64,000 bases of DNA from an uncultured Bacteroidales bacterium (GTDB lineage: Bacteria > Bacteroidota > Bacteroidia > Bacteroidales > UBA12077). The stretch covers positions 1,361 to 65,360 of the forward strand of contig CAYWSJ010000004.1 in NCBI GenBank assembly GCA_964461045.1, in the 5' to 3' direction. The notes under the pieces were generated by a model, which was given only the letters and a program-made list of their open reading frames with translations, searched no databases and was not told where the DNA came from. The translations under genes and the position numbers were made by a program. Shown one piece after another: positions 1,668-19,412 of this stretch (its first letter is position 1; each line of letters begins with the position of its first letter).

Positions 1668-1697
1668 AAAAAACCCGGCATACCAGCCGGGGTTTTA
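1668..1697. terminator. bidirectional hairpin terminator between convergent genes
   Basis: CCCGGC (1674-1679) pairs with GCCGGG (1686-1691). An A-run lies on the left and GTTTT on the right. It sits between the + gene ending at 1613 and the - gene ending at 1740. Confidence 0.6.
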
Positions 1698-1739: not shown

Positions 1740-2189
1740 TTAGATTTTTTTCACAAACGAGAGAATAACCACTGCAAGCCCTTCCTTTCCATCTTCGAAT
1801 TCTACAAAAATATGATAAGCTCCTGTTTTTTGGCATGTAAACTCGAAGGAGGGATAAATTTTACCTGTGGCAACCATATAATTGGAGGCTTCTAATTTAC
1901 TACTACTAAATAATTTTAAGATGGCTCTTCCGGCATAATCTTTTGAACTGCAAATAGAAAATTTATAAACAGTATTTTTTCTTAAGACCAATGATTGCTT
2001 ATCCTGCAATGGTTCTTGACCTGGAGGTGTGCTTCCTAACTTAACAGTAAAATCCTTTAGGTAAGTTGCATCTCCTGCTACTCTTGAGCAGATATTAACC
2101 AATTCTTCACCACTCTGAGCAGAGGATTGATTGATTCCTGCAAATGTTATTAAAGAGATTATAATAATAAAAAAATACGTATTCTTCAT
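1740..2189 (-). CDS. small secreted protein, unknown function
   Basis: 149-aa ORF with an N-terminal signal-like segment (FFIIIISLITFAGINQSSAQ). Starts 4 nt downstream of the preceding lipoprotein gene. Last gene of the minus-strand operon. Confidence 0.55.
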   Translation of the reverse strand: MKNTYFFIIIISLITFAGINQSSAQSGEELVNICSRVAGDATYLKDFTVKLGSTPPGQEPLQDKQSLVLRKNTVYKFSICSSKDYAGRAILKLFSSSKLEASNYMVATGKIYPSFEFTCQKTGAYHIFVEFEDGKEGLAVVILSFVKKI

Positions 2190-2193
2190 AATA

Positions 2194-3102
2194 TTATAGA
2201 CTGATTAAGTTATTTCGGATTTTGTTTGTTTCCTCAATAATTTTATATAATTGTTCATCTGTTATTTTTACGATACTTTTTTCATTTTGTTTGAAAGTAA
2301 GCTGACCATTTTCATCAATTATTTGTTCTGTTTCCCCTTGCTCAATGGTTATTTTAACTTCTTTAAATATTTTATGAATTCTTTTATAATCCTTAATCAG
2401 GTCCTGGAAATCCGGATTGTTCCTGTAGTTTTCCAGAAGAATCATCAGATTTGACATCATTACTTTTTGTTCACCAATTGCTTCTCTTAATTGTGGGTCA
2501 GGATCTGATTTATATACTTCACTTGTAAGATATAATCCTTCAAGCCATGCACCTGCAATCATAAGGGCGCTTAAATTACTCCTGCTATTTTCTCTCAAAT
2601 ACTCATCCATTTGTTTGAAATTTCTTTGAGAAATGTAAATCAAAGAATCAATATTTTCACTACTGGATGCCAGTCTTTTTAATGTACTAAAATCAAAAAA
2701 CTGGCCAATTTTTAATTTGTCGGCAATTTTTTTTATGGATTTTAGATAATCTATAGATACGGTTGTTTTGCTGTACATATTAAGATAACCGAGGTCAGCC
2801 GCGTAAATACCAAGGAGGATTGATTGCCTGAAGCTGGTACTGTAACTATCCACATTATCTGTAGATGCCAGGTATTCTTTTGAAAACGGGACATTCAGGC
2901 TTTTGATTAACGCTGCTGTTTCAATGGGTGATGAGATGTTCTCTGTAATTTTTTCCATTGCCTGATCTGAAACTTCGTAAACACCTTTGTTTGCAACAGA
3001 GTCAGGAACCTCTAAAGAATTATCTTCATTCCCTTCATTCGAGCATTTACATCCTGAAATTAAAGCGATTATGAGTACTCCTAGAATAAACTTTATCTTC
3101 AT
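2194..3102 (-). CDS. lipoprotein, unknown function (mostly helical)
   Basis: 302-aa ORF with signal peptide plus lipobox (LIIALISGC). No recognisable enzymatic motif. Confidence 0.6.
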   Translation of the reverse strand: MKIKFILGVLIIALISGCKCSNEGNEDNSLEVPDSVANKGVYEVSDQAMEKITENISSPIETAALIKSLNVPFSKEYLASTDNVDSYSTSFRQSILLGIYAADLGYLNMYSKTTVSIDYLKSIKKIADKLKIGQFFDFSTLKRLASSSENIDSLIYISQRNFKQMDEYLRENSRSNLSALMIAGAWLEGLYLTSEVYKSDPDPQLREAIGEQKVMMSNLMILLENYRNNPDFQDLIKDYKRIHKIFKEVKITIEQGETEQIIDENGQLTFKQNEKSIVKITDEQLYKIIEETNKIRNNLISL

Positions 3103-3165
3103 ATTTATTCTGCTATGTGGATTAATACAAAAATAATATTATATCGTGTAAATTTAAAAAAATAT

Positions 3166-6100
3166 TTAGGATTTCCGAAAGATTAATTTTTTTAAATTGA
3201 CTTTCTGTGGTAAATTAAGCAATTTATATAATGCATTGTAGTATAATGCTATATAGAATATAATAGTCATTATAGCAATAATCGCTAAATTAAACCAGTA
3301 AGTGCCAAAATAATTTCCCATAAAATATTTTCTGGGCGCAAAAAAGTGAGCCCTGAAATTAAAAAATCCTTCCTCTTCGGGATCCTGATAAATCGGGTCA
3401 ATATGTTGTATTAACTTATCTTCGTATTGAATGATTTTATTTTTTTCCAGAACTTTTTTTACCTGGTCAGAAATACTCTCGTTATAGTACTGATCCTTAA
3501 TTTTTCTATAAAAAGAAGGTCTTGTTTCAAGCAAATAACTTCTGATATTATCTAATTTTCTGTTTGCTAAATGAAATTTCTTTGAATAATATTGATCTAA
3601 TCGTTCCAGGTAATCAGTAATTTCACTCAAAATCAATTTGTTTATTTTATCCACCTTGAGTTTATCCAGGTATTTGAAAGTTAGATCTGTTTTGTTCATT
3701 TCTTTTCCCAGTTCATTTCTGAGTAGCGCAAGATCAGATTTTAGCTTTTCCTTTATGTCCTCTTTATGACTAAATTTAAGATTTTTCTTAATTTTTTTGA
3801 CCTTTTTTTCTAATTCGGGGATATAATAGACCTGTTTATAATTGGCCTTGCTTTCCTTTTTTTCAAGATCGTAAAAATGTTGTTCGTATTTATTGTTTTT
3901 GAATTGGTTTACCATAAGTGCCTCATAAGACCATTTTGTGGGCATTATTTCAGCAATAAGGGGTACTTTATCCACACTGGTAATATTCCTGTTTAATTTA
4001 TCGAAGGGGAACATAGCCCCGCTGAGTATCATCATTGGGATCATTAATAACGGAATGATGATGTATATTGTAACAGCAGAGTTGAAGGTGGCTGAAATAT
4101 TTAATCCAATCATGTTAGCACATACGGCTGTTATAAATAATGCAAGCCAGTATTCGAAAAACATTCCGCGTATTTCGAGGATGCTGTTGGCAATCAGTAC
4201 AAACAGAACGGATTGTATGGCTGATATAACAGTCAAAATAAGCACTTTAGAGGTTAGGTAACTGGATTTACTTAAATTCAGAAATTGTTCTCTTTTAAGT
4301 ATTTTCCGGTCTCTGAATATTTCTTCTGCACTTACTGTTAACCCCAAAAACAGTGAAACAATAAGTGCCATAAAGATGTAAATAGGGATGTTTTCATTTA
4401 TGCGGAATATATACTCATCTGAGGTAGGGTTCGGTACATAGCGAATAATATATGATAGGATAAAGCCCAGAACAGGCGCTTCGAGTAAATTCAGGGCAAC
4501 GTATTGTTTGTTGCTTATTTTTGAGAGAAAATCCCTGATTGTATATATTTTAAATTGGGTTAACCAGGAGGGTATCTTGGTTGAAGAAGGGGGTTCTTCA
4601 TCTACTTCTTTGACATGTTCTATATTTATGTTTTCGTGTAGCCTTTCTTCCCATTTTTTAGGTGATACTTTTCTTTTGTCTGTGTATCTTCCATATTCAT
4701 CAACTACCCGGGCTTCCATAATGTTAAATATAAGTTCGGGATTTACGTTACCGCAGGTAGGGCACTCCCCCACATCGCTATTAATCTGTGCGTCAAGGCG
4801 TTTGAAATACATGACACTTTCCACGGGGTTTCCATAGTATACCATGTATCCTCCTTCATCAAGGATGATCATATTGTCAAACATTTTGTAGATCTCTGAT
4901 GAAGGTTGATGAATAACGACAAATATAAGCTTTCCTTTCAGAGTTAATTCCCGGAGGAGGTCCATTACATTTTCAGAGTCTCTTGAGGATAATCCTGAGG
5001 TTGGTTCATCTACAAAAAGAATGGCAGGCTCCCTGATTAATTCGAGGGAAATGTTCAGTCTTTTTCTTTGACCTCCGCTAATAAGTTTATTCATAGGAGA
5101 ACCGACCTTAAGGTCTTTGATTTCTCCCAGTCCGAGATTATATAAAGTTTTATCTACTAGCTCCTTGAGTTCTTCTTCTTCTTTGTCTCTAAAAACCAGT
5201 TTTGCATTATAGTATAAATTCTGAAAAACTGTAAGTTCCTCAATAAGAAGGTCATCCTGGGGAATGTATCCTATTGAACCTTTAAGATTTTCTTCTCCTT
5301 CATGGAGATTTGTGCCATTAATTCTTATTTCTCCTGTGGTTGGTTTGTTAATGCCGGACAGGATATTCAGCAGTGTTGTTTTACCAGCACCACTGGCTCC
5401 CATGATTCCAATTAATTTTCCCTGTGTTTCTGAAAAATTAATATTTCTGAGTCCTATGGCACCGTTCGGGAATTGATAGCCGATATTATCTGCTACATAG
5501 GAAATTTTCAGGGAGGTTGAGTCAGCCAGGTAATGTGCAACAACATCGCTGTAGTATATTGGTTTTCCTTTAGGGAGCTTGATTGAACCACCCTGAGCAA
5601 AGAGATAAATTCTTTTGTTGTTAAGAGGCAGGCCATTAAGGTTTATTTCTTCACTTCCCGTATAGCGTAAGAAATACAGGTCTACACTTTTTATATGCAG
5701 TATAAATATGTTGCCGTCTAGTGCAGTTGACTGGATATGCTTACAGTTCTCACAGGGGTTTTCTTTGTCGTTTATTATGAGTATGTTATGGTTGTCCAGT
5801 TTGGAAATATCATTGTTAATAACGAAGGTTTCAATACTTCTGTATTCTTCCCTGGTAACTTTAAAGACTTCGGCAACAGTGTTAATGATGGCCATTCTTT
5901 GTTCTGAGAATTTTCGGTCGGCATTGATCAACTCGAAAAGTCTTACCAGAACAATTATTTTCTGTTTTTGGGTAAGTGTTTTGTTAATTTTTTTACAAAG
6001 CCCTAGTATTCTTACGGAGTCTTTAACGGAGGTAAGTTTTCTTTTTTTCTCTTTTTCTCCGTTTTGGTTATTTTTTTTGTATCCTGCTTTTTTATCAAAA

Positions 6101-6249
6101 AGCTCTATATACTCCTGAATAGCCTCATCGTTGAGTTGTTGAGTGAGGAAATTTAAAACATAATCTCTTTCGTTGGTTTCAACACCATCATCTTGTTTTG
6201 CAATAATCGCAAACAACTGCATCAACGCCTTCAGAATCTCTTCACTCAT
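3166..6249 (-). CDS. ABCG/White-type ABC exporter (NBD-TMD fusion) with N-terminal TerB-like helical region and FHA-like beta region
   Basis: Walker A GASGAGKTT, signature LSGGQRKRL, Walker B ILFVDEPTSGLS and the ABCG hallmark VIHQPSSEIYKMFD. About 6 TM helices follow the NBD. A long charged C-terminal extension ends in one more TM. N-terminus has LFAIIAKQDDGVETNERDYV (TerB-like pattern). Confidence 0.85.
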   Translation of the reverse strand: MSEEILKALMQLFAIIAKQDDGVETNERDYVLNFLTQQLNDEAIQEYIELFDKKAGYKKNNQNGEKEKKRKLTSVKDSVRILGLCKKINKTLTQKQKIIVLVRLFELINADRKFSEQRMAIINTVAEVFKVTREEYRSIETFVINNDISKLDNHNILIINDKENPCENCKHIQSTALDGNIFILHIKSVDLYFLRYTGSEEINLNGLPLNNKRIYLFAQGGSIKLPKGKPIYYSDVVAHYLADSTSLKISYVADNIGYQFPNGAIGLRNINFSETQGKLIGIMGASGAGKTTLLNILSGINKPTTGEIRINGTNLHEGEENLKGSIGYIPQDDLLIEELTVFQNLYYNAKLVFRDKEEEELKELVDKTLYNLGLGEIKDLKVGSPMNKLISGGQRKRLNISLELIREPAILFVDEPTSGLSSRDSENVMDLLRELTLKGKLIFVVIHQPSSEIYKMFDNMIILDEGGYMVYYGNPVESVMYFKRLDAQINSDVGECPTCGNVNPELIFNIMEARVVDEYGRYTDKRKVSPKKWEERLHENINIEHVKEVDEEPPSSTKIPSWLTQFKIYTIRDFLSKISNKQYVALNLLEAPVLGFILSYIIRYVPNPTSDEYIFRINENIPIYIFMALIVSLFLGLTVSAEEIFRDRKILKREQFLNLSKSSYLTSKVLILTVISAIQSVLFVLIANSILEIRGMFFEYWLALFITAVCANMIGLNISATFNSAVTIYIIIPLLMIPMMILSGAMFPFDKLNRNITSVDKVPLIAEIMPTKWSYEALMVNQFKNNKYEQHFYDLEKKESKANYKQVYYIPELEKKVKKIKKNLKFSHKEDIKEKLKSDLALLRNELGKEMNKTDLTFKYLDKLKVDKINKLILSEITDYLERLDQYYSKKFHLANRKLDNIRSYLLETRPSFYRKIKDQYYNESISDQVKKVLEKNKIIQYEDKLIQHIDPIYQDPEEEGFFNFRAHFFAPRKYFMGNYFGTYWFNLAIIAIMTIIFYIALYYNALYKLLNLPQKVNLKKLIFRKS

Positions 6250-6271
6250 TTTCTAATATTTTCTCGACAAT

Positions 6272-6652
6272 TTACAATACGTAACTAACCTGTTCAAAAG
6301 GGATATCTACTATATCTGCATATTCTTCTCCGGCTTCTTCCATATCTTCGTCATCTTCCGGATAATACCATTTAATAAGAACATCGTTCCCGTTTTCATA
6401 CATTTCTTCCAGTTTCATTAAAATATCAAGAAGAAGTTTTGAAGATGCTGTATTGAAATAAACTAATTTAAATGAAAATATGGTTTTTGCATTTGGATTT
6501 TCTGCATATTCTTCAAGCCAGTTCAGGATAGGTTCATAAAAAGTTGTCACATCTTCAGGTAAAGACCTTCCTGATATTTCAAAGATCTCATTATCTTTGT
6601 CAAGAATAACACTAGGCGTATCGTCTGTTCCTTTTATTTTTATTACTTCCAT
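6272..6652 (-). CDS. DUF1987 / SiaC-like partner-switch phosphoprotein
   Basis: 126 aa. N-terminal KIKGTDDTPSVILDKDNEIFEISGRSLPED, then FYEPILNWL and the YFNT68ASSK motif, with an acidic C-terminus. This is the typical DUF1987 layout. Confidence 0.75.
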   Translation of the reverse strand: MEVIKIKGTDDTPSVILDKDNEIFEISGRSLPEDVTTFYEPILNWLEEYAENPNAKTIFSFKLVYFNTASSKLLLDILMKLEEMYENGNDVLIKWYYPEDDEDMEEAGEEYADIVDIPFEQVSYVL

Positions 6653-6666
6653 AATTCAAACATTTA

Positions 6667-7242
6667 TTAATTATTTCTAGAAATTGATGATGAAAGAAGG
6701 AAAAACGAACTTGTTTCATCAATTGGTAAAAAGTGGTATTCTAATTTGTTCCCGGTTTTTCTTGCAATATCAATAAAACCAAGGCCAGCACCACCTTTAT
6801 CGGATAATCTTCCTTCTCGCATTTGTTTTTTGTAAAGTTGTTTTAATCCTTCTTTATCCAAACTGTTAATTTCCTCGAGCATGTCGGTTAGTTCTTCTAT
6901 CTTCCTGTTTTCTATCACATTCCCGGTTGTTACATGGTAATCTCTTTTTCCTTTGCTTACCATGAAGATTCCACGTCCGGCAAACAGGTAATCGTCAGAG
7001 CCAAATGTGTCGGCATGTTTGCTTATGTTTTGCAAACACTCAACCATTACATGGAAGACTTTCTTTTGCACTGTATTTGATTCTTCTTCTTTGGCCATGT
7101 TTGATTCGGTCAATGAGGTAAAAGCTTTTGTGATCTGGTGTGTAATTTCACCCTCATAGACCAGTGTAATTTCATGAGCTTTCATTGACCTATAAAAATC
7201 GTATACAAATTCAAGAAAGCCTTTCACATTATGTTTATCCAT
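6667..7242 (-). CDS. SiaB-like protein kinase (RsbW/SpoIIAB-type GHKL fold)
   Basis: 191 aa. N-box-like VECLQNISKH and G-box-like DKGGAGLGFIDIARKTG. Sits immediately upstream of the DUF1987 gene (14-nt gap). Confidence 0.7.
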   Translation of the reverse strand: MDKHNVKGFLEFVYDFYRSMKAHEITLVYEGEITHQITKAFTSLTESNMAKEEESNTVQKKVFHVMVECLQNISKHADTFGSDDYLFAGRGIFMVSKGKRDYHVTTGNVIENRKIEELTDMLEEINSLDKEGLKQLYKKQMREGRLSDKGGAGLGFIDIARKTGNKLEYHFLPIDETSSFFLLSSSISRNN

Positions 7243-7279
7243 AACATAGGTATTAATTTAGTTAAACAAAGTAAATATA

Positions 7280-9880
7280 TTAAAATTCTATTCCAATTAA
7301 TAACACGTCATCTATTTGTTTATTGTTTTTTTTCCATTTCCTGTAGTCACTTGCAAAGAAACTTGAAAATTGCTGCATCGTTAAATCCTTATTTTCCAGT
7401 ATATTTTCTCTGATTTTTTTCGGTGTATATTTCCTTTTATCGGGCCCACCAATTTGATCGGGCAAACCGTCAGTGAAGAAGAAAATTTTATCTCCTTCTT
7501 TATATTTAATGATATGGTTTACAAAATCTTTTTCAGCCTTTTTCCTGTGGGGAATCCCGCCAATGGCTTTTCGGTTTCCTTTGTACTGTGTTAATTCACC
7601 ATCCCTCAGTAGGTATAAAGGTCTGTGTGCTCCGGCGTATTGCAGTTCTTTTTTCTTTTTGTCAATCCGGCACAGTGCAATGTCCATTCCATCTCTTGCT
7701 TCGGCATCAAACCTGTCTTGTTTCAGGGTAGATCTGACACCAAAATGAAGCTTGTCAAGAACCTGGGCAGCGGTATAGTTTTTATTGTGGTCCACAATAT
7801 TGTTTAACTGGAAATACCCAATAAATGACAGCAATGCTCCGGGCACTCCATGCCCTGTACAATCGACAGCTGCAATGAAAATAATATCTTCTTTTTTAAA
7901 GAACCAGGGGAAGTCACCGCTTACGACGTCTCTGGGTTCGTAGAACATAAATGATTTTGGCAGGTATTCCTGTACAATAGTATTGCTTGGGAGTATTGAT
8001 GTTTGAATTCTTTGTGCATAGTTTATACTGTCTGTAATCTGCTTATTTTTTTTCTGGATTTCCATTTCTATTCGTTTTGCCTCTGTAATGTCGTGTCCGA
8101 CGAAAAGAATGGTTTCCAGTTCACTTTCATTGAATTCCGGGATCGCTTTAAAATTCATTATGCGTTCGCCTAATTTAGCGGTAGGAATTGTGATTTCTTT
8201 GTTGAGTGTTTCATTTTTCTTTTTAATTTCTTCAATGGAATCAACAAAGAAGTGGGCAAGTGTTTCTTCTATTTCAAGGTCTTTTATGCGTGTATTGATT
8301 AATTTTTGTGGGTCAATCCCTACATATGATTTTGATACAGGATTAGAGTAAAAGAACTGACCCCTGGTATTAAGTCGCATAATTAAGTCGGGACTGTTTT
8401 CTGAAAGGGACTGCATCTTACTCTTCATTCTTTCTTCTTTCTCTGCTCGTTTTCTTTCAGTAATATCCCTTGAATTGAGTATGATACCATTTATGGCAGG
8501 ATCTTCGAGAAGGTTTCTTCCTGTAGTCTCGAGGAAGATTTTTTTGCCGTCCTTTTTGATATAGGTATATTGTAGAGTTTGTGGCTCCTTTGGATTTTCC
8601 TTGAGTTTCTTAAACATGTCTTTCAGAGCAGCTTCCCCTTTCGCTGTAAGTCTTTCCATGTCTTTTCCACGCATCATTTCAGCCTGTGTGTATCCAAGGA
8701 TATTTTTAACGTTTGGACTTTGGTATTTGAGTTTCAGGTTTTCGTCGTATATCGAGATTACCTCGGATGCATTTTCAAGGAGTGCTTTAAGGCGTTTCTG
8801 GGCATTTTCAACCTCCTTTATCTGTGCTTCAAGTTTTTTGTTTGATTTTTCAAGCTCCTCGTGGGTAGCCCTCATTTCCTCTGCGTTCTGTCTTAGCTCC
8901 TCCTCATTTTCTTTCAGTTCCTGGGTCATTTGTTGTGATTCCTGAAGCAATTTTTCTGTCTTTTGGTTCATCTTCAGGTTGTAGATTGTTCTGGCGATAA
9001 TTTCGGCCAGCTCACGAAGGAAATTTATGGTAAGTTCGGGTATTTCTTCTTTTATATCTGCAAATTCAATAACACCCTGAAGTTTTTCGTCTGCTATAAG
9101 AGGCACTATTAAAAGGCTTTTGGGTTTTTTGTCACCCAGAATACCAGATGTAATAGTTGCGTAGTCATCAGGAATTTCTGTTCGATAGATGTAGTCCATC
9201 TCATAGGCACATTCACCGATTAGTCCTTCTCCAACTTTGAATTCCTGGTTAATATATCTTTTTCGGTTATAGGCGTACGTCGCAACGTTTACCAGTTTTT
9301 CTTCTTCTTCATTATAGATGTAGAGAGCGCCCTGTATTATATTGATGTAATCGATTAATTTTACAATCACGTCAAATGCAAGGCCATCTATATCATTATG
9401 TAATCTTAAAATTTCCGAAACAATATCTTTCCCTTCTGCAATCCAGTTTCTTTCTTTTTCTTTCTGGTTACTTTCCAGCAGGTTATTTCTCATCCTGAGG
9501 AGTGATTTCCCAAGAACGTCGTTTTCATTTTTTATTTCTAATTTGGCATCGTAATGTCCTTCGCCAATTTTTTTTGCAAAAGTTGCATTTCTGTCTATAT
9601 CAAGATCTCTCTGGTTAATGATGTCTTCGAAAACAAGTTTTTCTTTTTCTCTTTTGCGGTAGTAAATATAAATTACAACCCCAATTACAACAGGGATAGA
9701 GTCAATAACCCATAACGTAGGATTGGTTTTGTGAATTTGGGCAATGGAAGAGAATGAAAAGGCAAGGTTGCCGGAAATAATATTAATAACCCATGCTATT
9801 ATGGGTATTAAGATAGAAACAGCAACTCCTGTAAGAATATCATTTTTGGTTATTGTAATTGAATTTTTTTCTCGACTCAT
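7280..9880 (-). CDS. membrane sensor PP2C (SpoIIE/RsbU-type) phosphatase: 2 TM, HAMP-like, GAF, Q/E-rich coiled coil, 2 PAS, PP2C (SiaA-like)
   Basis: PP2C motifs SGDFPWFF, AAVDCTGHGVPGALLS and FFFTDGLPDQ. GAF ending LIVPLIADEKLQGVIEF. Two PAS-like blocks. ATG at 9880 preferred; the ORF track uses an upstream TTG at 9913, which would overlap the preceding gene by 17 nt. Confidence 0.85.
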   Translation of the reverse strand: MSREKNSITITKNDILTGVAVSILIPIIAWVINIISGNLAFSFSSIAQIHKTNPTLWVIDSIPVVIGVVIYIYYRKREKEKLVFEDIINQRDLDIDRNATFAKKIGEGHYDAKLEIKNENDVLGKSLLRMRNNLLESNQKEKERNWIAEGKDIVSEILRLHNDIDGLAFDVIVKLIDYINIIQGALYIYNEEEEKLVNVATYAYNRKRYINQEFKVGEGLIGECAYEMDYIYRTEIPDDYATITSGILGDKKPKSLLIVPLIADEKLQGVIEFADIKEEIPELTINFLRELAEIIARTIYNLKMNQKTEKLLQESQQMTQELKENEEELRQNAEEMRATHEELEKSNKKLEAQIKEVENAQKRLKALLENASEVISIYDENLKLKYQSPNVKNILGYTQAEMMRGKDMERLTAKGEAALKDMFKKLKENPKEPQTLQYTYIKKDGKKIFLETTGRNLLEDPAINGIILNSRDITERKRAEKEERMKSKMQSLSENSPDLIMRLNTRGQFFYSNPVSKSYVGIDPQKLINTRIKDLEIEETLAHFFVDSIEEIKKKNETLNKEITIPTAKLGERIMNFKAIPEFNESELETILFVGHDITEAKRIEMEIQKKNKQITDSINYAQRIQTSILPSNTIVQEYLPKSFMFYEPRDVVSGDFPWFFKKEDIIFIAAVDCTGHGVPGALLSFIGYFQLNNIVDHNKNYTAAQVLDKLHFGVRSTLKQDRFDAEARDGMDIALCRIDKKKKELQYAGAHRPLYLLRDGELTQYKGNRKAIGGIPHRKKAEKDFVNHIIKYKEGDKIFFFTDGLPDQIGGPDKRKYTPKKIRENILENKDLTMQQFSSFFASDYRKWKKNNKQIDDVLLIGIEF

Positions 9881-9896
9881 ATCAATAAGCTGTATA

Positions 9897-10676
9897 TTAT
9901 ATTTTATTAGCAAGTTGCTCGCCTAATTTTTCTTTCAAAGATGCAAGCAGTTTTTCAGTTTTTTTCCCATACACTTTAAATGAAGCCAGTTCTATTAGTC
10001 CTATTGTTTTTTCCTGGTTAATTACAGGGATGTAAAGTATGCTTTTAGGTGAACTGCTTCCCAGTCCGGAAAGTATTGTAATGTAATTTTCCGGTATTTT
10101 AGTCAGATTTAATATTTTCTGATTTTGAGCTGTCTGGCCTGAGAGTGTTGACCCAAGATCAAAATCTTTTGGTTCTTCTTCTCCAAAATATGCAAATTTT
10201 CCAGCTATTGTAAATGTATCAGAATCTTTTTTTCTTGTATAATACAGGCCCTGGACAATATCAAATTCTTTAGCAAGATTACTGAGTACCTGTTCTGTAT
10301 GTTTTTGTAAAGAAGCTTTGCCTTTTGTGTCTTTAGGAATGATTTTTTTATGCAGAGATTCTATTTCTTTTTGGTCTATTTCCTGTTCTTCCTCTTCATC
10401 TTCTTCTTTTTTGGCTGTATCTCCCTCAATATCGGTAAGGTATGTTTTTTTGATATATTCTTCTTTACTTATTTTTTCTTTGGTGAGTGTAATAATTTGA
10501 ATATAGAGCCCCAATCCGGTTAAGGTTGCTATTCCAAGCAGGAAATAAATAATGGTAGCCTGGAAATCCTGATCTAATGAAATATTTCTGATTCTGGCCA
10601 GTACGAGAACAAGGATAATTAAGAATATGAAGAAAAAAGCAGTGCTTAATATTTTATGTGATTTTTTATAACTCAT
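9897..10676 (-). CDS. membrane-anchored GAF-domain protein with acidic linker
   Basis: 259 aa with two N-terminal TM segments. Linker KKEEDEEEEQEIDQKEIE. C-terminal GAF-like block ending YIPVINQEKTIGLIELASF. Confidence 0.6.
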   Translation of the reverse strand: MSYKKSHKILSTAFFFIFLIILVLVLARIRNISLDQDFQATIIYFLLGIATLTGLGLYIQIITLTKEKISKEEYIKKTYLTDIEGDTAKKEEDEEEEQEIDQKEIESLHKKIIPKDTKGKASLQKHTEQVLSNLAKEFDIVQGLYYTRKKDSDTFTIAGKFAYFGEEEPKDFDLGSTLSGQTAQNQKILNLTKIPENYITILSGLGSSSPKSILYIPVINQEKTIGLIELASFKVYGKKTEKLLASLKEKLGEQLANKI

Positions 10677-10683
10677 TAAATTG

Positions 10684-11241
10684 TTATTTTAAGTTTTGTA
10701 AATAATCAATTATCTGATCTGTTGTATAAACATAATCTACATCCGTTACTCTTAAAGATGCTTCTGTCATTGTTGCCACTTCACATTCTTTAGGATCTTG
10801 CACAATAGCTGTTCCTCCCAGTTCTTTCACTTTTTTAAGTCCTTGTGCGCCGTCTCTGTTAGCTCCTGAAAGGATTATTCCAAGCAGGTTTTTATTGTAT
10901 GTTTGAGCTGCTGTTTCAAAAGAAAGATCAATTGATGGCCTGGAATGATTTACAGGTTCTTCAGTGGACAAAGCAATTTTTTTGTTTAATTCTATATACA
11001 TATGATAGTTTGACGGGGCCAGATATGCATTCCCTGGTTTGATGGAATCTTTATCATGGGGTTCAATTACCGGGATGTTTGATTTAATAGACAGTGCCTC
11101 CACAAACCCTGACCTTACATGCTTAAGGCGATGCAGGTTGAGCAAAATGGGCAATGGGTAACCTTTTGGCAATGATTGTAAAATTTTTGTAATCACCCTG
11201 AAGCTACCGGCAGAACCTCCTATGATAACAGCTTTAAACAT
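10684..11241 (-). CDS. cheB: protein-glutamate methylesterase, catalytic domain only (no receiver domain)
   Basis: 185 aa. VIIGGSAGSFRV (Ser motif), LHRLKH region and GANRDGAQGLKKVKELGGTAIVQDP (Asp motif), as in CheB_methylest. The start codon directly abuts the stop of the upstream CheR-like gene. Confidence 0.8.
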   Translation of the reverse strand: MFKAVIIGGSAGSFRVITKILQSLPKGYPLPILLNLHRLKHVRSGFVEALSIKSNIPVIEPHDKDSIKPGNAYLAPSNYHMYIELNKKIALSTEEPVNHSRPSIDLSFETAAQTYNKNLLGIILSGANRDGAQGLKKVKELGGTAIVQDPKECEVATMTEASLRVTDVDYVYTTDQIIDYLQNLK

Positions 11242-12072
11242 TTAAGCTAATTTTTTCTTATAGATTTTTTCGTTTTCGTTTACTAATATATAATCTTTCT
11301 CTGAATTCCAATAATCAATTTTTTCATTCATTCCAATTATAAGGTGCCCGCCAGGAACCAAACAGTTGTATAGTGATTTAAGAAGTCTTTCTTCAAGGAT
11401 CTGGTTAAAATACAACAAATGGTTTCTGTAAAAAATTAGTTTTATCCCTTTAGGATATTGCTCAAAGATAGTATTTTGTTTGATAAATTTAATATTTTTA
11501 AGTAATGAAATATCGATATAGGCACTTTCGTCTTTTATTGTGTAATAATCACTTAGTGGTTTTTCGTCAATTATCCTTTTGAAGTTGGATTCATTCACAT
11601 CAATTTTGGTATAGTCAAAGTATCCTTCCTGAATCTTGTTAAGGTGGATCTGACTAATACTGCTTACTAAAAACTGAACCTTATCAAGTACGCCTAAATA
11701 ATCAAGAAGAATGGCTACTGAATACAATTCTTCTCCTGAGCTTACCTCGGGGAACCAAATTTTGTACTGGGAGCTTTTTTGTAAAATTTGAGGAAAAAAG
11801 TCGTCTTTTAAGTATCTCCATAAGGATGGATCCCGGAACATTTCAGTTATTTCAATGCATAATTCTTTCAGGAATATTTCAAAGAAATCTTTATCATTTT
11901 CAATCCTTCTGATAAAGTTATCTGCATTTTTAAGGTTATATTTATCAATAATCAATTCTACTCTTCTTTTAAAGAAAGTGAGGGCATAATTTTTAAAATT
12001 AAAGTCATACTTTTCTTTAATCGCCTTTATAATATTTCTAGTATCTACAATTCCTAATTCGTATCTTGCCAT
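11242..12072 (-). CDS. CheR-like methyltransferase paralogue with diverged SAM-binding loop
   Basis: 276 aa with CheR N-terminal helical region plus MTase fold (EMFRDPSLW, LIFYRNHLLYF). The canonical AGCSTGEE loop reads PEVSSGEE. Confidence 0.7.
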   Translation of the reverse strand: MARYELGIVDTRNIIKAIKEKYDFNFKNYALTFFKRRVELIIDKYNLKNADNFIRRIENDKDFFEIFLKELCIEITEMFRDPSLWRYLKDDFFPQILQKSSQYKIWFPEVSSGEELYSVAILLDYLGVLDKVQFLVSSISQIHLNKIQEGYFDYTKIDVNESNFKRIIDEKPLSDYYTIKDESAYIDISLLKNIKFIKQNTIFEQYPKGIKLIFYRNHLLYFNQILEERLLKSLYNCLVPGGHLIIGMNEKIDYWNSEKDYILVNENEKIYKKKLA

Positions 12073-12094
12073 TTTAGAATTGATTTAAGTCTGT

Positions 12095-12937
12095 TTAATA
12101 TTTTTTTCTGTAAAAATTTCCTCTTTTATCAAATTTATTGGCTATTTCTCCCAGCATACTTTCGTGCATGCCAAAAAGCAAATAGCCATTGGTATAGAGG
12201 TGTTCATAAAATCTTTGAAAAACCTGGCTTTGCAATTCATATTTAAAATAAATAATTACATTTCTGCAAATTATCAAATCAAATTTTGCAAAATATAGAT
12301 CTTCTCCCTTAACCAGGTCATGTTTTCTGAAGATTGGTTTTTCCCTTAGGAAATCATTCATTTCCAGGGAGTCTGATATTTTGTTTATTTTAAAATACTT
12401 TGAGTATGGAACATCATTGTATTCTTCGTAATTAAAAGGATTTTCCTTTACTACTTTATCAAAATTATCAAGGTATCCAATATTAAACCGGTATTTAAAA
12501 ACACCCTTTTTGGCTGCTTCCAGAGCATCTATATTAATATCAGTTGCAAATATTTTAGCCTTATCAAACAAGTCAAGTTCATTTAGCAGGATCATCATTG
12601 AATAAACCTCTTGTCCGGTAGAGCAACCAGCGTGCCAAATATTTATGTTTTTGTTATTTTTGAATTTGGGAAGAATTCGGAAACGTAGGTCTTGCCATAC
12701 TTGTGGGTCTCTGAAAAGTTCGGTTGTGTTTACAGTAATGTCTTTTACTACTTTTTCAAGGAAAGCCCGGTCATTCTTTAATTTGTTAATAATGGTGGAA
12801 ATATCCATTTTGTTGTCATCCAAGACTTTTTGAATTCGTCTTTTAAGGGATTTTTCAGAATACTCCGTGAAGTTGTACTCCGAATGATTTTTTATAGTTG
12901 TAACAAAATAAAGGACTTCCTTATCAGTTAGACCCAT
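12095..12937 (-). CDS. cheR: protein-glutamate O-methyltransferase
   Basis: 280 aa. ELFRDPQVW, IWHAGCSTGQEVYSM and DLIICRNVIIYF are canonical CheR motifs. Confidence 0.85.
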   Translation of the reverse strand: MGLTDKEVLYFVTTIKNHSEYNFTEYSEKSLKRRIQKVLDDNKMDISTIINKLKNDRAFLEKVVKDITVNTTELFRDPQVWQDLRFRILPKFKNNKNINIWHAGCSTGQEVYSMMILLNELDLFDKAKIFATDINIDALEAAKKGVFKYRFNIGYLDNFDKVVKENPFNYEEYNDVPYSKYFKINKISDSLEMNDFLREKPIFRKHDLVKGEDLYFAKFDLIICRNVIIYFKYELQSQVFQRFYEHLYTNGYLLFGMHESMLGEIANKFDKRGNFYRKKY

Positions 12938-12961
12938 GTAATAATTATGGTTAAAATTTCA

Positions 12962-12969
12962 CAAATATA
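12962..12969 (-). promoter_or_regulatory. Bacteroidota-type -7 box (TATATTTG) for the cheR operon
   Basis: Minus-strand TATATTTG matches TAnnTTTG, 24 nt upstream of the ATG at 12937. Confidence 0.4.
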
Positions 12970-14867: not shown

Positions 14868-15254
14868 ATGAATTATTACACAAATAAAATCATTGACGGA
14901 AATTTTGATGAGGTAATTGAAAAGGTAAAAGGCAAACTAAAGGAAGCCGGTTTTGGGGTTTTAAGTGATATTGATGTTCGGGAAACACTTAAGAATAAAC
15001 TGGATGTTAATTTCAGAAACTACAGAATTTTGGGTGCATGCAATCCGCCGAATGCACACAAGGCACTTTCTGCTGAACCGCATATAGGCCTTATGTTACC
15101 ATGCAATGTTGTTGTTCAGGAGAAAGAAGAGGGTAAAATCGATGTTGCTGCCATTGATCCAATAGCTTCAATGACAGCAGTGGAAAATTCAGAACTGGAC
15201 GAAATTGCTGAACATATTAAGAATCAATTGGAAGGAGTAATAAGTAGTTTATAG
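14868..15254 (+). CDS. DUF302 domain protein
   Basis: 128 aa. GFGVLSDIDVRETLKNKL and YRILGACNPPNAHKAL are typical DUF302 patterns. Confidence 0.75.
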   Translation: MNYYTNKIIDGNFDEVIEKVKGKLKEAGFGVLSDIDVRETLKNKLDVNFRNYRILGACNPPNAHKALSAEPHIGLMLPCNVVVQEKEEGKIDVAAIDPIASMTAVENSELDEIAEHIKNQLEGVISSL

Positions 15255-15256
15255 TT

Positions 15257-15463
15257 ATGCCACTTTTTGTTAAATTAATTGTCATTGCGATTGTATTGGT
15301 AGCCATTGTGATGGGCGTTTTCGGACTAAAACTTCTTTCCGACAAAAGCTCTAAGTTTAATGTGGAAACCGATAATGAGAAATATAAAAAAATGAAGGAA
15401 GAAGGGATATACAGTGTCTATAAAAAAGAAAACGAACAATCCGAAGACAAAAAAGATTCGTAA
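15257..15463 (+). CDS. small single-pass membrane protein
   Basis: 68-aa ORF starting 2 nt after the DUF302 stop. One TM (LIVIAIVLVAIVMGVFGL) followed by a K/E-rich tail. Confidence 0.4.
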   Translation: MPLFVKLIVIAIVLVAIVMGVFGLKLLSDKSSKFNVETDNEKYKKMKEEGIYSVYKKENEQSEDKKDS

Positions 15464-15475
15464 AATAATTATTTT

Positions 15476-16054
15476 TTGGTGAGCCAGGAGTATAAATTAC
15501 ATATAAAAAACATGGTCTGTCCAAGATGCATTATGGCTGTAAAGGATATTTTGGACAGACTTTCTATTTCTTATATTGAAGTCAGATTGGGTGAGGTTAT
15601 ACTTAAGCAACCACAGAAAGAGATTGATATTCCAGTATTAAAGAAAGAGTTGGAGAATATTGGTTTTGAATTAATCGAAGATCAAAATGTTAAATACGTG
15701 GAAAAGATAAAGAGTTTGATTATTAATCATATAAGATATCCTGAGAATTATAAAACTCCCTATAATTTTTCATACTTTATCGCAGAAAAAACCGGGAAAG
15801 ATTATCACTATCTGAGCAAATTATTTTCTCAAAAAGAAGGAATAACGATAGAGAAATTTATTATTCTTCAAAGAGTAGAATATGTCAAAGAATTATTAAT
15901 TTATGATGAATATAACCTTAGTGAGATAGCTGATAAGTTGAATTACAGCAGTATCTCTCACCTTTCCAACCAATTCAAACAGGTAACAGGCTTTTCTCCA
16001 AGCGCTTTTAAAAAATTACAGAAAAGCGAGCGAAAGCCGCTGGATGAATTATAA
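15476..16054 (+). CDS. AraC-family transcriptional regulator with N-terminal HMA-like CxxC metal-binding domain
   Basis: N-terminus HIKNMVCPRCIMAVKDIL (HMA fold pattern). C-terminal AraC HTH LSEIADKLNYSSISHLSNQFKQVTGFSPSAFKK. TTG start at 15476; GTG at 15479 is also possible. Confidence 0.8.
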   Translation: MVSQEYKLHIKNMVCPRCIMAVKDILDRLSISYIEVRLGEVILKQPQKEIDIPVLKKELENIGFELIEDQNVKYVEKIKSLIINHIRYPENYKTPYNFSYFIAEKTGKDYHYLSKLFSQKEGITIEKFIILQRVEYVKELLIYDEYNLSEIADKLNYSSISHLSNQFKQVTGFSPSAFKKLQKSERKPLDEL

Positions 16055-16156
16055 GTTTCATAGTTAGCATAATTTCACAAATCTTTTTCAATATTCTGTA
16101 AAACAAAGAGTAACATCCACAGGTTATCTTGAGTAAAGATATGGAGGTGTTAAATT

Positions 16157-16357
16157 ATGTATCACGGACATGGATTTTTAGGTTTTGGATGGGTAATAGG
16201 AATAATCCTAGTCGTAGCTTTAATACTTATTTTTGCCAGTATATACAACAGTTCAAAATCAGAGGAGTCGACCCTGGAAATTTTAAAACGAAAATATGCC
16301 AGCGGAGAGATCAGCCGGGAAGAATTTATTAGAAGGAAGGAAGATATTGAGGAATAG
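16157..16357 (+). CDS. SHOCT-domain small membrane protein
   Basis: 66 aa. N-terminal TM, then LEILKRKYASGEISREEFIRRKEDI (SHOCT pattern). GGAGGTG lies 7 nt upstream of the ATG. Confidence 0.65.
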   Translation: MYHGHGFLGFGWVIGIILVVALILIFASIYNSSKSEESTLEILKRKYASGEISREEFIRRKEDIEE

Positions 16358-16533
16358 ACTTAATTTAATTCCAGAATATTCAAAAAGGCAGAAACTTTTT
16401 CTTGTTCTGTTTCTTTTATGGATTAGGGTGTTTTCCAAATTTTATAAATCTTTCTACAAATTTTGAAAAACACAAAGGCCTGTTTTTGGGTTCTTAGCAG
16501 TAACAAAATTGGATAAAATAAAAAAACAAAAGT

Positions 16534-16761
16534 ATGAACACGCTTAAATTTAAAACAAACCTGAAATGTGCAGGATGCATGTATGCTATTAAACCATACA
16601 TGGATGCCCTTGAAGGAGTAAATTCATGGGATGTTGATTTAGACAGCCCGGAAAAAGTTGTAGAAGTGAAGACAGATTCGGCTACGCCTGAGGAAATAAA
16701 AGAGGCTATTGAGAAAGCCATAGGAGAAGCCGGGTACACTGCAGAATTGATTAATAACTAG
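16534..16761 (+). CDS. heavy-metal-associated (CopZ-like) metallochaperone
   Basis: 75 aa. [19 protein letters not shown] has a CxxC in an HMA-fold context. Lies directly upstream of copA. Confidence 0.7.
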
Positions 16762-16781
16762 AATTGAAGAGGTGTTTTTTT

Positions 16782-18995: not shown

Positions 18996-19019
18996 TTTTT
19001 AACCAAAAATCAAATAGCT

Positions 19020-19412
19020 ATGAAAACAATTGTATTTAGTTTAAGTTTATTTTTAGGGTTCTTCTTGTTTAATCCTTTACAGATGAACGCCCAATGTGAA
19101 AAAGAAAGTAAGGATAAATCAGTTAAAGTTGCTGAAGCAAAAGACTGTGATCTTGAAAAGAAATCATTTGCAGTTCAGGGTAACTGTGGAATGTGTGAAA
19201 CCCGAATCGAAAAAGCGGCAAAAAGTGTTGATGGAGTTAAGAAAGCTAAGTGGGATAAGTCTTCAGATAAGCTGACTGTTTATTATCCAAAAGGAAAGGT
19301 GAATATGATGGACGTGCATAAAGCTATAGCAAATGCCGGTCATGATACATCTGAGAAAAAAGCTTCTGATAATACTTATGCAAGCCTTCCGGGCTGTTGT
19401 AAGTATAGATAA
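19020..19412 (+). CDS. secreted HMA-domain metal-binding protein
   Basis: 130 aa. Signal peptide, GNCGMCETRIEKAAKSV (CxxC HMA) and a C-terminal PGCC. Confidence 0.7.
   Translation: MKTIVFSLSLFLGFFLFNPLQMNAQCEKESKDKSVKVAEAKDCDLEKKSFAVQGNCGMCETRIEKAAKSVDGVKKAKWDKSSDKLTVYYPKGKVNMMDVHKAIANAGHDTSEKKASDNTYASLPGCCKYR

Follow-up and report, generated by a model that had tools for sequence, protein, structure and literature searches.

A conserved Bacteroidota operon joins CheR/CheB genes to a SiaA/B/C-type partner switch and an ABCG-type exporter and encodes a candidate methyl-accepting helix

Background

What do the chemotaxis-type methylation enzymes CheR and CheB act on in an operon that encodes no chemoreceptor, and why do they lie beside a SiaA/B/C-type partner switch and an ABC exporter? 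CheR/CheB adaptation is textbook molecular memory, and to our knowledge it is experimentally known on MCP chemoreceptors only. The operon lies in a 64-kb window (the whole stretch of DNA analysed, 64,000 nucleotides from an uncultured Bacteroidales bacterium), and an original prediction made from these letters read it as a composite device in which reversible methylation tunes a sensor phosphatase whose partner switch gates the exporter. That prediction also held that no MCP, CheA, CheW, CheY, or GGDEF gene occurs in the operon or anywhere in the 64 kb, and Pfam scans agree, as MCPsignal, CheW, CheA, Response_reg, and GGDEF were all absent from the 39 other ORFs scanned in the window (37 that lie beyond 13 kb and are 110 aa or longer, and two left-flank ORFs). 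Here, we examine the ten proteins, their gene neighbourhoods across Bacteroidota, and a wider family of sensors that share one conserved helix with the phosphatase.

Results and discussion

Organization and conservation of the operon

The ORF coordinates confirm ten same-strand genes (Table 1), and the junctions of 22, 0, 7, 16, 37, 14, 22, 63, and 4 nt, recomputed from these coordinates, are exactly those originally given; the fourth becomes a 17-nt overlap if the alternative TTG at 9913 is used as the start of gene 5 in place of the ATG at 9880, which public gene calls use and which yields 866 aa. The TAnnTTTG box upstream of gene 1 and the bidirectional hairpin after gene 10 are likewise present. 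Across the window, TAnnTTTG turns up 87 times against 91 expected by chance, so that the TATATTTG box by itself proves nothing, and its position is only suggestive of a promoter.

Table 1 Features of the operon (positions within the 64-kb window)
Feature	Position	Strand	Remarks
Candidate -7 promoter box TATATTTG, Bacteroidota-type	12962..12969	-	25 nt upstream of first ATG
Gene 1, CheR	12095..12937	-	280 aa
Gene 2, degenerate CheR paralogue	11242..12072	-	276 aa
Gene 3, receiver-less CheB methylesterase/deamidase	10684..11241	-	185 aa
Gene 4, membrane hairpin + GAF protein	9897..10676	-	259 aa
Gene 5, membrane-anchored GAF/Glu-pair helix/PAS/PAS/PP2C sensor phosphatase	7280..9880	-	866 aa
Candidate methyl-accepting helix QESQQMTQELKENEEELRQNAEEMRATHEE in gene 5	8855..8944	-	residues 313-342
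Gene 6, SiaB-family protein kinase (DUF6272)	6667..7242	-	191 aa
Gene 7, SiaC/DUF1987 phospho-target	6272..6652	-	126 aa
Gene 8, TerB/FHA-like/ABC ATPase/ABC-2 membrane protein, ABCG-type exporter	3166..6249	-	1027 aa
FHA-like beta domain of gene 8	5554..5784	-	residues 156-232; structure model + Foldseek
Helical insert of gene 8, predicted periplasmic	3301..4023	-	~240 aa; PTKWSYEALMVNQF re-entrant motif to last TM helix (984-1002)
Possible internal promoter box TATTTTTG	3128..3135	-	inside 63-nt gap before gene 9
Gene 9, lipoprotein, fold family not recognised	2194..3102	-	302 aa
Gene 10, small secreted protein	1740..2189	-	149 aa
Two-way intrinsic terminator hairpin	1674..1691	both	CCCGGC...GCCGGG then T run

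Two other kinds of function were considered for parts of this region and rejected. Between genes 8 and 9, the 63-nt gap shows no significant structure at the RNA level (z = 0.79), which dismisses a regulatory RNA there, and no non-coding RNA or tRNA features were found within the window; for anti-phage defence, PADLOC matches were limited to generic methyltransferase and ABC-ATPase hits.

The original prediction had proposed comparing gene neighbourhoods in related genomes, and synteny holds. The sample matched 200 species, and in the 80 species-level Bacteroidales loci examined the ten genes stand in order wherever the locus is long enough. Fulvivirga maritima (Cytophagales) and three other distant contigs retain the core CheR-CheB-GAF-phosphatase-SiaB-SiaC-ABC, and gene order is conserved across two orders of Bacteroidota. 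Both F. maritima and Perlabentimonas gracilis, in which the system occurs, are cultured strains.

The CheR, CheR-like, and CheB proteins

HMM and PDB comparisons support the CheR and CheB assignments. Gene 1 matches Pfam CheR (1.9e-39) and Bacillus subtilis CheR (5ftw, 1.3e-30), and its AdoMet motifs (WHAGCSTGQEVYS, ATD, and CRNV) are invariant in 64/64 orthologues; judged by these motifs, it is a catalytic-type CheR with an intact AdoMet-binding site. Gene 2 (Pfam CheR, 7e-23), which had been called a diverged CheR-like protein, can now be described more exactly: VSSIS stands in place of ATDID and YRNH in place of CRNV, and the Asp at the AdoMet ribose-binding position is missing in 67/67 orthologues, which suggests a protein that is probably non-catalytic. 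Cytophagales versions of the operon lack gene 2 and have a single catalytic CheR only.

The sole Pfam domain of gene 3 is CheB_methylest (4.8e-48 for the 185-aa protein), and in the alignment with 3sft (1.4e-27) its Ser10, His37, and Asp130 fall on the catalytic triad (3sft/1chd). Its closest relatives are stand-alone CheBs of ~190 aa, while longer relatives are CheB-REC-kinase or tandem CheB proteins. Receiver-less CheB is also part of F3 chemosensory systems (PMC9239204).

The sensor phosphatase and its Glu-pair helix

Gene 4 combines two TM helices (9-27 and 41-59) with a GAF domain (GAF_2, 1e-6) that is, on sequence similarity, a paralogue of the GAF domain of the phosphatase (34% identity over 107 aa, E = 1e-13); the gene is found in all related loci yet is the least conserved of the operon (0.37). 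In gene 5, Pfam recognises GAF, two PAS, and SpoIIE domains, and the PP2C domain aligns with SiaA (6k4e, 3.1e-32), its only PDB match, over the metal-binding motifs. With the NCBIfam SiaA model the score is 161 bits against an equivalog cut-off of 700, a shortfall caused by the different N-terminal sensor region. The HAMP-like segment originally proposed for gene 5 is not recognised by Pfam in the window protein, but Pfam HAMP is found in orthologues and in the paralogous sensor.

Between GAF and PAS, gene 5 carries the helix QESQQMTQELKENEEELRQNAEEMRATHEE, with five Glu/Gln pairs at 7-residue spacing and some E/Q interchange. This linker is among the two most conserved blocks of the protein (0.93 for residues 321-340 vs a protein mean of 0.71), and Cytophagales phosphatases keep the helix core. 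The pair E334-E335, within EEMRAT, is invariant save in one lineage, L092, with Asp-Asp at this central pair. EEMRAT fits EExxA[ST], the classical chemoreceptor methylation consensus, and is the sole match to [EQ][EQ]xx[AGST][AGST] among the signalling proteins of the operon; compared with the 10-residue MCP consensus, the C-terminal half of the site matches and the N-terminal half does not. The gene 5 helix is a candidate methyl-accepting substrate, which may also be purely structural. CheB-CheR fusion kinases may carry similar 'NEEL' helices, but the longer relatives of this CheB are of other types, and the possible resemblance plays no part in our reading.

Helix-bearing sensors beyond the phosphatase

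In some loci, an output-less sensor whose gene is inserted between those for CheR1 and CheR2, or lies upstream of the one for CheR, carries the helix too, and in a 735,137-aa set of ORFs drawn from 93 loci the motif was confined to the phosphatases and these sensors. That the helix might be private to the operon was rejected by a metagenome scan, in favour of a reading as scattered receptors. Of 48 other helix-bearing sensors, 47 lack an output domain and have inputs of the chemoreceptor type, and many terminate at the helix. An upstream EEE is invariant in the 48, with no Gln, although this was partly forced by the selection pattern used. CheR or CheB is on the contig of 9/72 helix-sensor loci, the majority having neither; in seven of eight such loci examined a che gene is the direct neighbour, three different arrangements occur among them, and one lies inside a complete MCP/CheA/CheW cluster. 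By this count, che genes beside helix sensors are enriched far above chance. Like MCP genes, some helix sensors cluster with che genes and others are scattered.

The original proposal that methylation tunes the sensor phosphatase, whose mechanism we infer from sequence, gains independent support here, because the phosphatase has a near-invariant Glu-pair helix with an EExxAT site and because paralogous sensors sharing this helix are enriched beside CheR/CheB in other arrangements. An alternative that we consider unlikely is that CheR and CheB serve chemoreceptors encoded elsewhere, that the helix is a structural GAF-PAS coiled coil, and that two unrelated modules are merely co-located. Chemoreceptors do exist in some Bacteroidetes (PMC7390727), and the lineage of L090 and L092 has REC-CheB, CheD, and CheR, probably a full Che cluster, directly upstream. 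The Asp-Asp at the key site in L092 and the many helix sensors that do not adjoin che genes point the same way, as does L181, the single member with a true MCP domain, where the helix connects PAS domains at a long distance from the canonical adaptation region and in this placement is like a generic connector. Such co-location is difficult to reconcile with the order and strand of CheR-CheB by the phosphatase, which are invariant in all loci examined from two orders, with junctions of 0-22 nt here, or with the lack of MCP, CheA, and CheW in the 64 kb; moreover, a sensor that stops at the helix and has no output domain requires a partner, and che genes lie beside helix sensors far more often than expected by chance.

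The SiaB/SiaC-type partner switch

The SiaB-like and SiaC/DUF1987 assignments are also backed by HMM and PDB comparisons. Gene 6, which has the highest conservation in the operon (0.89), matches the NCBIfam SiaB_fam_kinase model NF038262 (179 bits vs a cut-off of 85), Pfam DUF6272 (1.2e-45), and SiaB itself (6kko_A, 3.8e-14), and gene 7 matches Pfam SiaC (3.8e-43, 146 bits vs a cut-off of 24.5) and 6kko_C (3.2e-15). The SiaA, SiaB, and SiaC equivalog models all score under their cut-offs for the operon proteins. In gene 7, YFNT68ASSK aligns to LLYLNT68SSIK of Pseudomonas aeruginosa, in which T68 is the phosphorylated residue of SiaC (PMC7647112); this predicted acceptor Thr68 (codon 6449-6451) would, by alignment, lie at the N-terminus of helix 2.

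The exporter and its two companions

The earlier call of an IHQPS-type ABC exporter holds for gene 8, with Pfam ABC_tran at 267-418, ABC2_membrane at 564-783, a visible IHQPS motif, and ABCG-like PDB matches (Cdr1, Pdr5, and ABCG1/2/5 being the best relatives, and ABCG1 aligning over 267-753 at 1e-39). TIGR00955 scores 272 bits, under its subfamily cut-off of 736. By domain content, gene 8 is an ABCG/White-type (type V) exporter with the ATPase N-terminal to the ABC-2 domain. A suspected split of the ABC gene in Cytophagales was dropped, as the tblastn alignment is continuous in L091.

Three features of gene 8 go beyond the original prediction, namely an N-terminal TerB domain, an FHA-like domain, and an insert of ~240 aa, predicted to be periplasmic by analogy to extracellular loop 3 of ABCG proteins. 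The structure model of the N-terminus has a pLDDT of 85.6 overall and >90 in the FHA-like region, and its best Foldseek matches are mostly FHA domains, albeit weak ones (E ~1e-2, target TM 0.43-0.52); Pfam found no FHA domain in gene 8. Ser188 and Asn205-Gly206 are conserved, a conserved Gly-Arg is missing, and Leu191 replaces His, which leaves the canonical phospho-Thr-binding set (Gly-Arg, Ser-x-x-His, and Asn-Gly) incomplete. The searchable literature yielded no description of TerB-ABC fusions.

That gene 9 encodes a lipoprotein and gene 10 a secreted protein is borne out by a lipobox (LISGC18) and a signal peptide, respectively, and neither belongs to a recognised family (Pfam/NCBIfam). 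All 1,447 homologues of gene 9 are annotated 'hypothetical', and its confident model (pLDDT 80) has no structural neighbours in the PDB (Foldseek best E = 0.2). Gene 9 homologues follow the ABC gene in L087, L088, L089, and L091, while gene 10 has homologues in 71 loci as well as in L088 and L089.

The reading that the switch gates the exporter, again an inferred mechanism, rests on SiaC-ABC adjacency and on the TerB/FHA-like N-terminus of the modelled ABC protein. In all the Che/Sia-bearing loci examined, distant ones included, the TerB-ABC gene comes directly after the SiaC-like gene (22 nt apart in this operon). It is improbable, in our estimate, that methylation and partner switch work as proposed while the SiaC-like protein has its target elsewhere (a cyclase, a sigma-factor pathway, or an enzyme) and the exporter trio is a separately regulated neighbour. 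In L088 and L089 the trio, genes 8-10, does stand beside purD with no Che/Sia genes next to it; genes 9 and 10 are missing from L090 and L092, a promoter-like box occupies the 63-nt gap before gene 9, and the FHA-like domain departs from canonical phospho-Thr binding. Against this alternative stand the constant SiaC-ABC adjacency and the dedicated regulatory N-terminus of the ABC protein. In addition, DUF1987 proteins have been proposed to regulate adjacent proteins, and SiaC regulates the product of the neighbouring gene (PMC8457831).

A proposed pathway

We regard as evenly balanced, on sequence evidence, the proposal that CheR and CheB modify the sensor helix, that this tunes the SiaA/B/C-type switch, and that the switch regulates the ABCG-type exporter. 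The whole looks like a chemotaxis-like pathway in which a Ser/Thr partner switch takes the place of the CheA/CheW/CheY core and the output is an envelope exporter. CheR would methylate, and CheB demethylate, Glu residues in the GAF-PAS coiled coil of the phosphatase, with E334/E335 as the core and the heptad pairs as flanking sites, and the identical helix of output-less receptor-like sensors, whether in or near the operon or scattered, would undergo the same modification. Methylation would reset how signals pass to the PP2C domain and in this way provide adaptation or memory, and because CheB has no receiver domain, feedback would come through conformation-dependent substrate choice. The degenerate CheR of gene 2 would probably bind the helix, or act as an adaptor for it, without catalytic activity. 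Phosphorylation of Thr68 on the SiaC-like protein would be set by the phosphatase together with the SiaB-like kinase, and one state of this protein would bind the TerB/FHA-like N-terminus of the ABC protein and switch export on or off. Through its large periplasmic loop, the exporter would partner the lipoprotein and the small periplasmic protein, and its cargo would be an envelope component, possibly a lipid or lipid-linked molecule.

A broader version, which we put forward tentatively and think rather doubtful, is that non-flagellated Bacteroidota possess an unrecognised chemosensory class whose receptors have chemoreceptor-type inputs and end in a HAMP-GAF-Glu-pair-helix module where an MCP signalling domain would be expected. 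These receptors would be methylated by CheR, demethylated by a receiver-less CheB, and would signal via a paralogous sensor phosphatase and a SiaB/SiaC switch, which replace CheA/CheW/CheY, to the ABCG-type envelope exporter. Modification of another operon protein (the acidic linker of gene 4, the acidic C-terminus of the SiaC-like protein, or the ABC protein) is very unlikely, for although gene 4 has a Glu-rich stretch (KKEEDEEEEQEIDQKE) and always adjoins cheB, it is poorly conserved, none of the three has a [EQ][EQ]xx[AGST][AGST] site in a conserved helix, and the helix is what che-adjacent sensors elsewhere have in common.

Comparison with known systems

The modules of this proposed pathway are known already, and their combination is undescribed in the searchable literature, where we found no account of CheR and CheB with PP2C and partner switching or of the DUF6272/SiaB family. 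The closest relative of the switch is SiaABCD of P. aeruginosa, with which the operon shares a SiaA-type PP2C, a SiaB-family kinase, a SiaC/DUF1987 protein with Thr68, and the gene order; in contrast, there is an ABC exporter in place of SiaD/GGDEF, which is found in neither operon nor 64 kb, the phosphatase has GAF, Glu-pair helix, and PAS-PAS, and CheR/CheB genes precede it. In HsbA-HsbD and BgrV-BgrR, the phosphorylation state of a STAS-like protein likewise controls a bound enzyme (PMC8457831), whereas there a diguanylate cyclase forms the output. In the literature searched, we found no partner switch whose output is an ABC transporter.

With chemosensory CheR/CheB systems (F3 and the Wsp-type 'alternative cellular function' class), the operon has in common a cheR-cheB block with catalytic CheR and an intact CheB triad, a candidate helix with heptad Glu pairs and EExxAT, and sensors with chemoreceptor-type inputs. 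It differs in having no MCP signalling domain, CheA, CheW, or CheY in operon or window, in its presumed transducer, a PP2C phosphatase, and in the extra degenerate CheR. The exporter resembles Mycobacterium tuberculosis Rv1747, an FHA-ABC exporter regulated by Thr phosphorylation (PMC3138270), in that both are ABCG-like with the ATPase before the membrane domain, have an N-terminal FHA-type domain (FHA-like and model-based here), and adjoin a Ser/Thr phospho-module. Unlike Rv1747/PknF, gene 8 has one FHA-like domain without the canonical Arg/His and with TerB before it, and where a Hanks kinase acts on the transporter in that system, the kinase here is a GHKL SiaB-type whose predicted target is a separate STAS-like protein.

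Conclusions

The operon offers a tractable system, as cultured strains carry it and the candidate methylation site lies on a single short peptide. If the proposed pathway is true, glutamate-methylation adaptation would reach beyond MCPs into Ser/Thr phospho-signalling, and DUF1987/SiaC and DUF6272/SiaB, both widespread families, would gain a second, non-c-di-GMP output. It would also give a large family of 'output-less' receptor-like sensors a testable role and explain why cheR and cheB are retained in gliding, non-flagellated Bacteroidota.

Operon architecture, domains, and conservation

Recomputed in the window, the ten minus-strand ORFs have the coordinates of the original prediction, and its junctions of 22, 0, 7, 16 (or a 17-nt overlap), 37, 14, 22, 63, and 4 nt were reproduced. 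In the public annotation of metagenome contigs identical to this one, the phosphatase starts at the ATG at 9880 (866 aa). The two-way hairpin terminator is real, and the promoter-like TATATTTG box claimed upstream of the first gene is present 25 nt before the first ATG; TAnnTTTG occurs 87 times in the window versus 91 in shuffles, i.e., without enrichment, so this box is weak evidence.

Features of the operon and the surrounding window. Assignments of genes 1–3 and 5–8 are from Pfam/NCBIfam; mean identities are relative to the window's proteins.
Feature	Window position	Strand	Assignment	Mean identity
TATATTTG box	12969-12962		upstream of gene 1	
Gene 1		minus	CheR	0.72
Gene 2		minus	CheR, weaker match (CheR-like)	0.54
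Gene 3		minus	CheB methylesterase without receiver	0.78
Gene 4		minus	GAF protein with two-helix membrane hairpin	0.37
Gene 5		minus	GAF, two PAS, SpoIIE/PP2C phosphatase	0.71
Gene 6		minus	DUF6272; exceeds curated cut-off of SiaB-family kinase model	0.89
Gene 7		minus	SiaC/DUF1987 protein	0.85
Gene 8		minus	ABC_tran and ABC2_membrane	0.70
Second promoter-like box	3135-3128	minus	inside 63-nt gap before gene 9	
Gene 9		minus	lipoprotein	0.49
Gene 10		minus	small secreted protein	0.50
Terminator	1674-1691		two-way hairpin	
332-aa ORF	615-1613	plus	between purD and operon terminator; no Pfam match	
Copper/heavy-metal cluster	14868-19412	plus	DUF302, AraC-type regulator, HMA-domain P-type ATPase, small HMA protein; just past divergent carbamoyltransferase	
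2958-aa ORF	32509-42368	plus	SprB/PKD/CHU_C type IX secretion cargo protein, PorP/SprF gene directly after	
HlyD-type adaptor gene	55170-56315		after the RND-OEP ORF	
Single 1447-aa ORF	56329-60672	minus	AcrB-type RND pump (ACR_tran, residues 5-1029) fused to C-terminal outer-membrane-factor (OEP/TolC-like) domain (residues 1285-1447)	

Profile-HMM searches (Pfam and NCBIfam) backed every domain assignment listed for genes 1–8, with genes 9 and 10 matching no family in either collection. In comparisons with solved structures, the CheB Ser-His-Asp triad is intact, SiaA is the sole match to the gene-5 PP2C domain (metal-binding motifs aligned), the gene-6 kinase matches SiaB, and Thr68 of the SiaC-like protein (YFNT68ASSK) aligns with the phosphorylated T68 of Pseudomonas aeruginosa SiaC (LLYLNT68SSIK). 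We propose that the phosphatase and the SiaB-like kinase would set the phosphorylation state of this Thr68.

Database relatives of the SiaB-like kinase number 3,172; the top 120 are at least 85% identical and, where named, belong to Bacteroidales or Bacteroidota MAGs. A scan with one genome per species matched 200 species, and the best 80 loci, among them the cultured Perlabentimonas gracilis, were kept for comparison. All ten genes had the same order and strand in every kept locus with enough flank, as expected of the predicted operon. L023 and L032 carry the full operon under the labels Thiohalospira sp. and Kosmotogales bacterium, respectively; their proteins are ~90% identical to the Bacteroidales versions, and they are probably mis-binned contigs in MAGs.

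More distant contexts were found via the ABC N-terminus. Fulvivirga maritima (Cytophagales) and three metagenome contigs share a core of CheR, CheB, GAF protein, GAF/PAS/PP2C phosphatase, SiaB-like, SiaC-like, and TerB-ABC genes, with one CheR only, of the catalytic type. Two distant loci, L090 and L092, are without genes 9 and 10, have a tandem SiaB duplication, and carry a receiver-containing CheB upstream (L092 also CheD and another CheR). In this lineage the Che/Sia/ABC cluster lies directly downstream of a CheR-HATPase-CheD-REC-CheB run (L090 1-4250; L092 1-4551), and such a run sits in a complete MCP-CheY-Hpt-CheA-CheW-CheW cluster at L202 537-9388.

The two CheR genes differ in their motifs. 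Gene 1 keeps every AdoMet-site motif in 64 of 64 orthologues; in gene 2, ATDID has become [AV]S[SV]IS and CRNV has become [FY]RN[QH], and the ribose-binding Asp is absent from all 67 orthologues. Gene 2, which is confined to Bacteroidales versions of the operon, is a conserved CheR paralogue and, judged by these substitutions, probably lacks catalytic activity.

Surrounding window

The predicted absence of MCP, CheA, CheW, receiver, or GGDEF genes held in the 39 other ORFs scanned (37 of ≥110 aa beyond 13 kb plus two left-flank ORFs). SprB, PorP/SprF, and CHU_C among the window ORFs mark the genome as Bacteroidota; SprB-type cargo with a PorP/SprF gene is the classic gliding-adhesin pair. The RND-OEP fusion is unusual. 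A PADLOC scan gave nothing specific. The positional counterpart of the 332-aa ORF in two other loci, L088 and L089, is annotated DUF6427, and the purD-DUF6427-exporter neighbourhood is kept even without Che/Sia genes.

Exporter as candidate output

The gene-8 exporter is closest, among solved structures, to the ABCG/PDR transporters Cdr1, Pdr5, and ABCG1/2/5, and the ABCG1 alignment spans ATPase and membrane domains. A confident AlphaFold model of residues 1-260 (pLDDT 85.6, pTM 0.81) divides into a helical TerB domain at 1-150 and, after it, a beta domain at 156-232, whose best Foldseek matches are mostly FHA domains (MEK1, Rad53 FHA1, CEP170, EssC), albeit weak ones (E ~1e-2, target-normalised TM 0.43-0.52). 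Ser188 and Asn205-Gly206 are conserved, but neither the Gly-Arg nor the His of canonical FHA domains is present, so phospho-Thr binding by the FHA-like domain cannot be asserted. Rv1747 of Mycobacterium tuberculosis offers a precedent: Thr phosphorylation has a positive regulatory effect on this ABC exporter, which carries an FHA domain (PMC3138270). We suggest that the SiaC-like protein may regulate the adjacent ABCG-type exporter via this TerB/FHA-like N-terminus.

It is also conceivable, if improbable, that the switch acts on something else and the exporter just happens to lie next to it. In L088 and L089 the ABC/gene-9/gene-10 trio lies beside purD with no adjacent Che/Sia genes, and thus the exporter trio is a separable module; on the other side, the distant core has the TerB-ABC gene together with the switch. 
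The exporter also has ~240 helical residues between its ABCG-type re-entrant motif PTKWSYEALMVNQF and last TM helix (984-1002), which by analogy form a large periplasmic loop. This loop could contact the gene-9 lipoprotein and the secreted gene-10 product. The lipoprotein could be modelled with confidence, but no structural neighbour was found for it.

A candidate methyl-accepting helix

One Bacteroidales subgroup has an extra gene between the two CheR genes, encoding a TM/HAMP/GAF/PAS/PAS sensor without output domain, whose GAF-PAS linker resembles that of the window phosphatase, KENEEELRQNAEEMRATHEELEKS. Across 73 aligned phosphatases, residues 321-340 of this linker are the joint most conserved block (0.93 versus a mean of 0.71), above any catalytic-domain block. 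Five acidic/amide pairs in the linker are spaced exactly 7 residues apart, namely Q-E 313/314, [QE]-E 320/321, E-[EQ] 327/328, the invariant E-E 334/335 inside AEEMRAT, and [ED]-E 341/342. EEMRAT conforms to the classical consensus for methylation, Glu-Glu-x-x-Ala-Ser/Thr, as in the Escherichia coli Tar sites EQQAAS, EETAAS, and EQLTAT. Across 735,137 residues of ORFs from 93 loci the helix motif is confined to phosphatases and output-less sensors. Its core, LRQNAEEMxATxEEL, is kept in Cytophagales phosphatases; the central pair is Q-E in L090 and D-D in L092, the latter arguing against methylation in that lineage.

Scanning metagenomes for DNA encoding QNxEEMxAT gave at least 120 loci. Among the matches listed, about 100 have the helix, with the extended consensus LLE.SQ.Q.EE[LM].[AS]QEEE[LM]RQN[LMA]EEMQATQEE[LM]; the QNA class consists of phosphatases of this operon family, neighboured by CheR, CheB, SiaB, SiaC, and ABC as far as the contig permits, and the QN[LM] class of different proteins in which the helix is combined with a conserved HAMP-like segment and a GAF of the ITSGLG type found in genes 4 and 5. 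The 48 complete QN[LM] members among these matches bear inputs typical of chemoreceptors (dCache_1, MCP-like_PDC_1, Cache_3-Cache_2, sCache_3, 4HB_MCP_1, CHASE3, PilJ, Reg_prop/Y_Y_Y), PAS domains in 28, and no output domain in 47, and many end just past the helix. Some sensors, in L105, L119, L142, and L187, contain two or more tandem copies of the helix, and two helix-bearing sensors are encoded side by side in L120, L164, L166, and L136/L141. In L187 (4941-6233 and 8720-9850) a porin gene (OprB family; BBP2 family) precedes each of two such sensors, a hint that particular porins may be linked to helix-bearing receptors.

On these observations we propose that receptor-type sensors and the sensor phosphatase would share a common methyl-accepting helix, serviced by CheR and the receiver-less CheB. 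Against a methylation role counts L181, a true MCP whose helix is flanked by PAS domains ahead of its HAMP and MCP region and looks like a generic connector. Among the matches listed, most QN[LM] sensors have no CheR/CheB on the same contig, and CheR or CheB is present in 9 of 72 helix-sensor loci; MCP genes behave likewise, few lying in che clusters and most being scattered. Seven of the eight che-bearing loci examined have the che gene right next to the sensor, in three arrangements: the sensor downstream of REC-CheB in a complete MCP-CheY-Hpt-CheA-CheW-CheW-CheR-HATPase-CheD-CheB cluster (L097, L148, L202), a receiver-less CheB ~70% identical to gene 3 (directly in L165; ~3.7 kb away in L207), or one or two CheR genes after the sensor (L167, L208, L187). 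With ~354 kb of flanking sequence covered and an assumed one to three che loci per genome, chance would yield an estimated 0.1-0.2 such che-bearing loci, roughly. We regard as unlikely a helix with a structural role alone, CheR and CheB acting on ordinary MCPs encoded elsewhere. Methylation of some other protein of the operon instead seems less likely still, EEMRAT being the sole such consensus match among the operon's signalling proteins.

Proposed pathway and its novelty

We observe the domain identities, the catalytic residues, and the synteny, and infer every functional link of the full chain, from methylated sensor to exporter; this chemotaxis-like pathway is the best-supported reading, with about an even chance of being right throughout. 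In the full-text literature searched, no paper joined SiaC with CheR/CheB in this sense, dealt with DUF6272 or SiaB-family proteins outside Pseudomonas, or combined CheR, CheB, PP2C, and partner-switching, and the paper on the SiaC structure goes no further than to propose that DUF1987 proteins control their neighbours (PMC8457831). The modules are all of known kinds and the wiring appears new: non-MCP helices are probable CheR/CheB substrates and, in contrast to SiaABCD of P. aeruginosa, a SiaABC-type switch would operate without a cyclase and have an exporter instead as output. More broadly, the operon and its relatives possibly represent a new class of chemosensory pathway.
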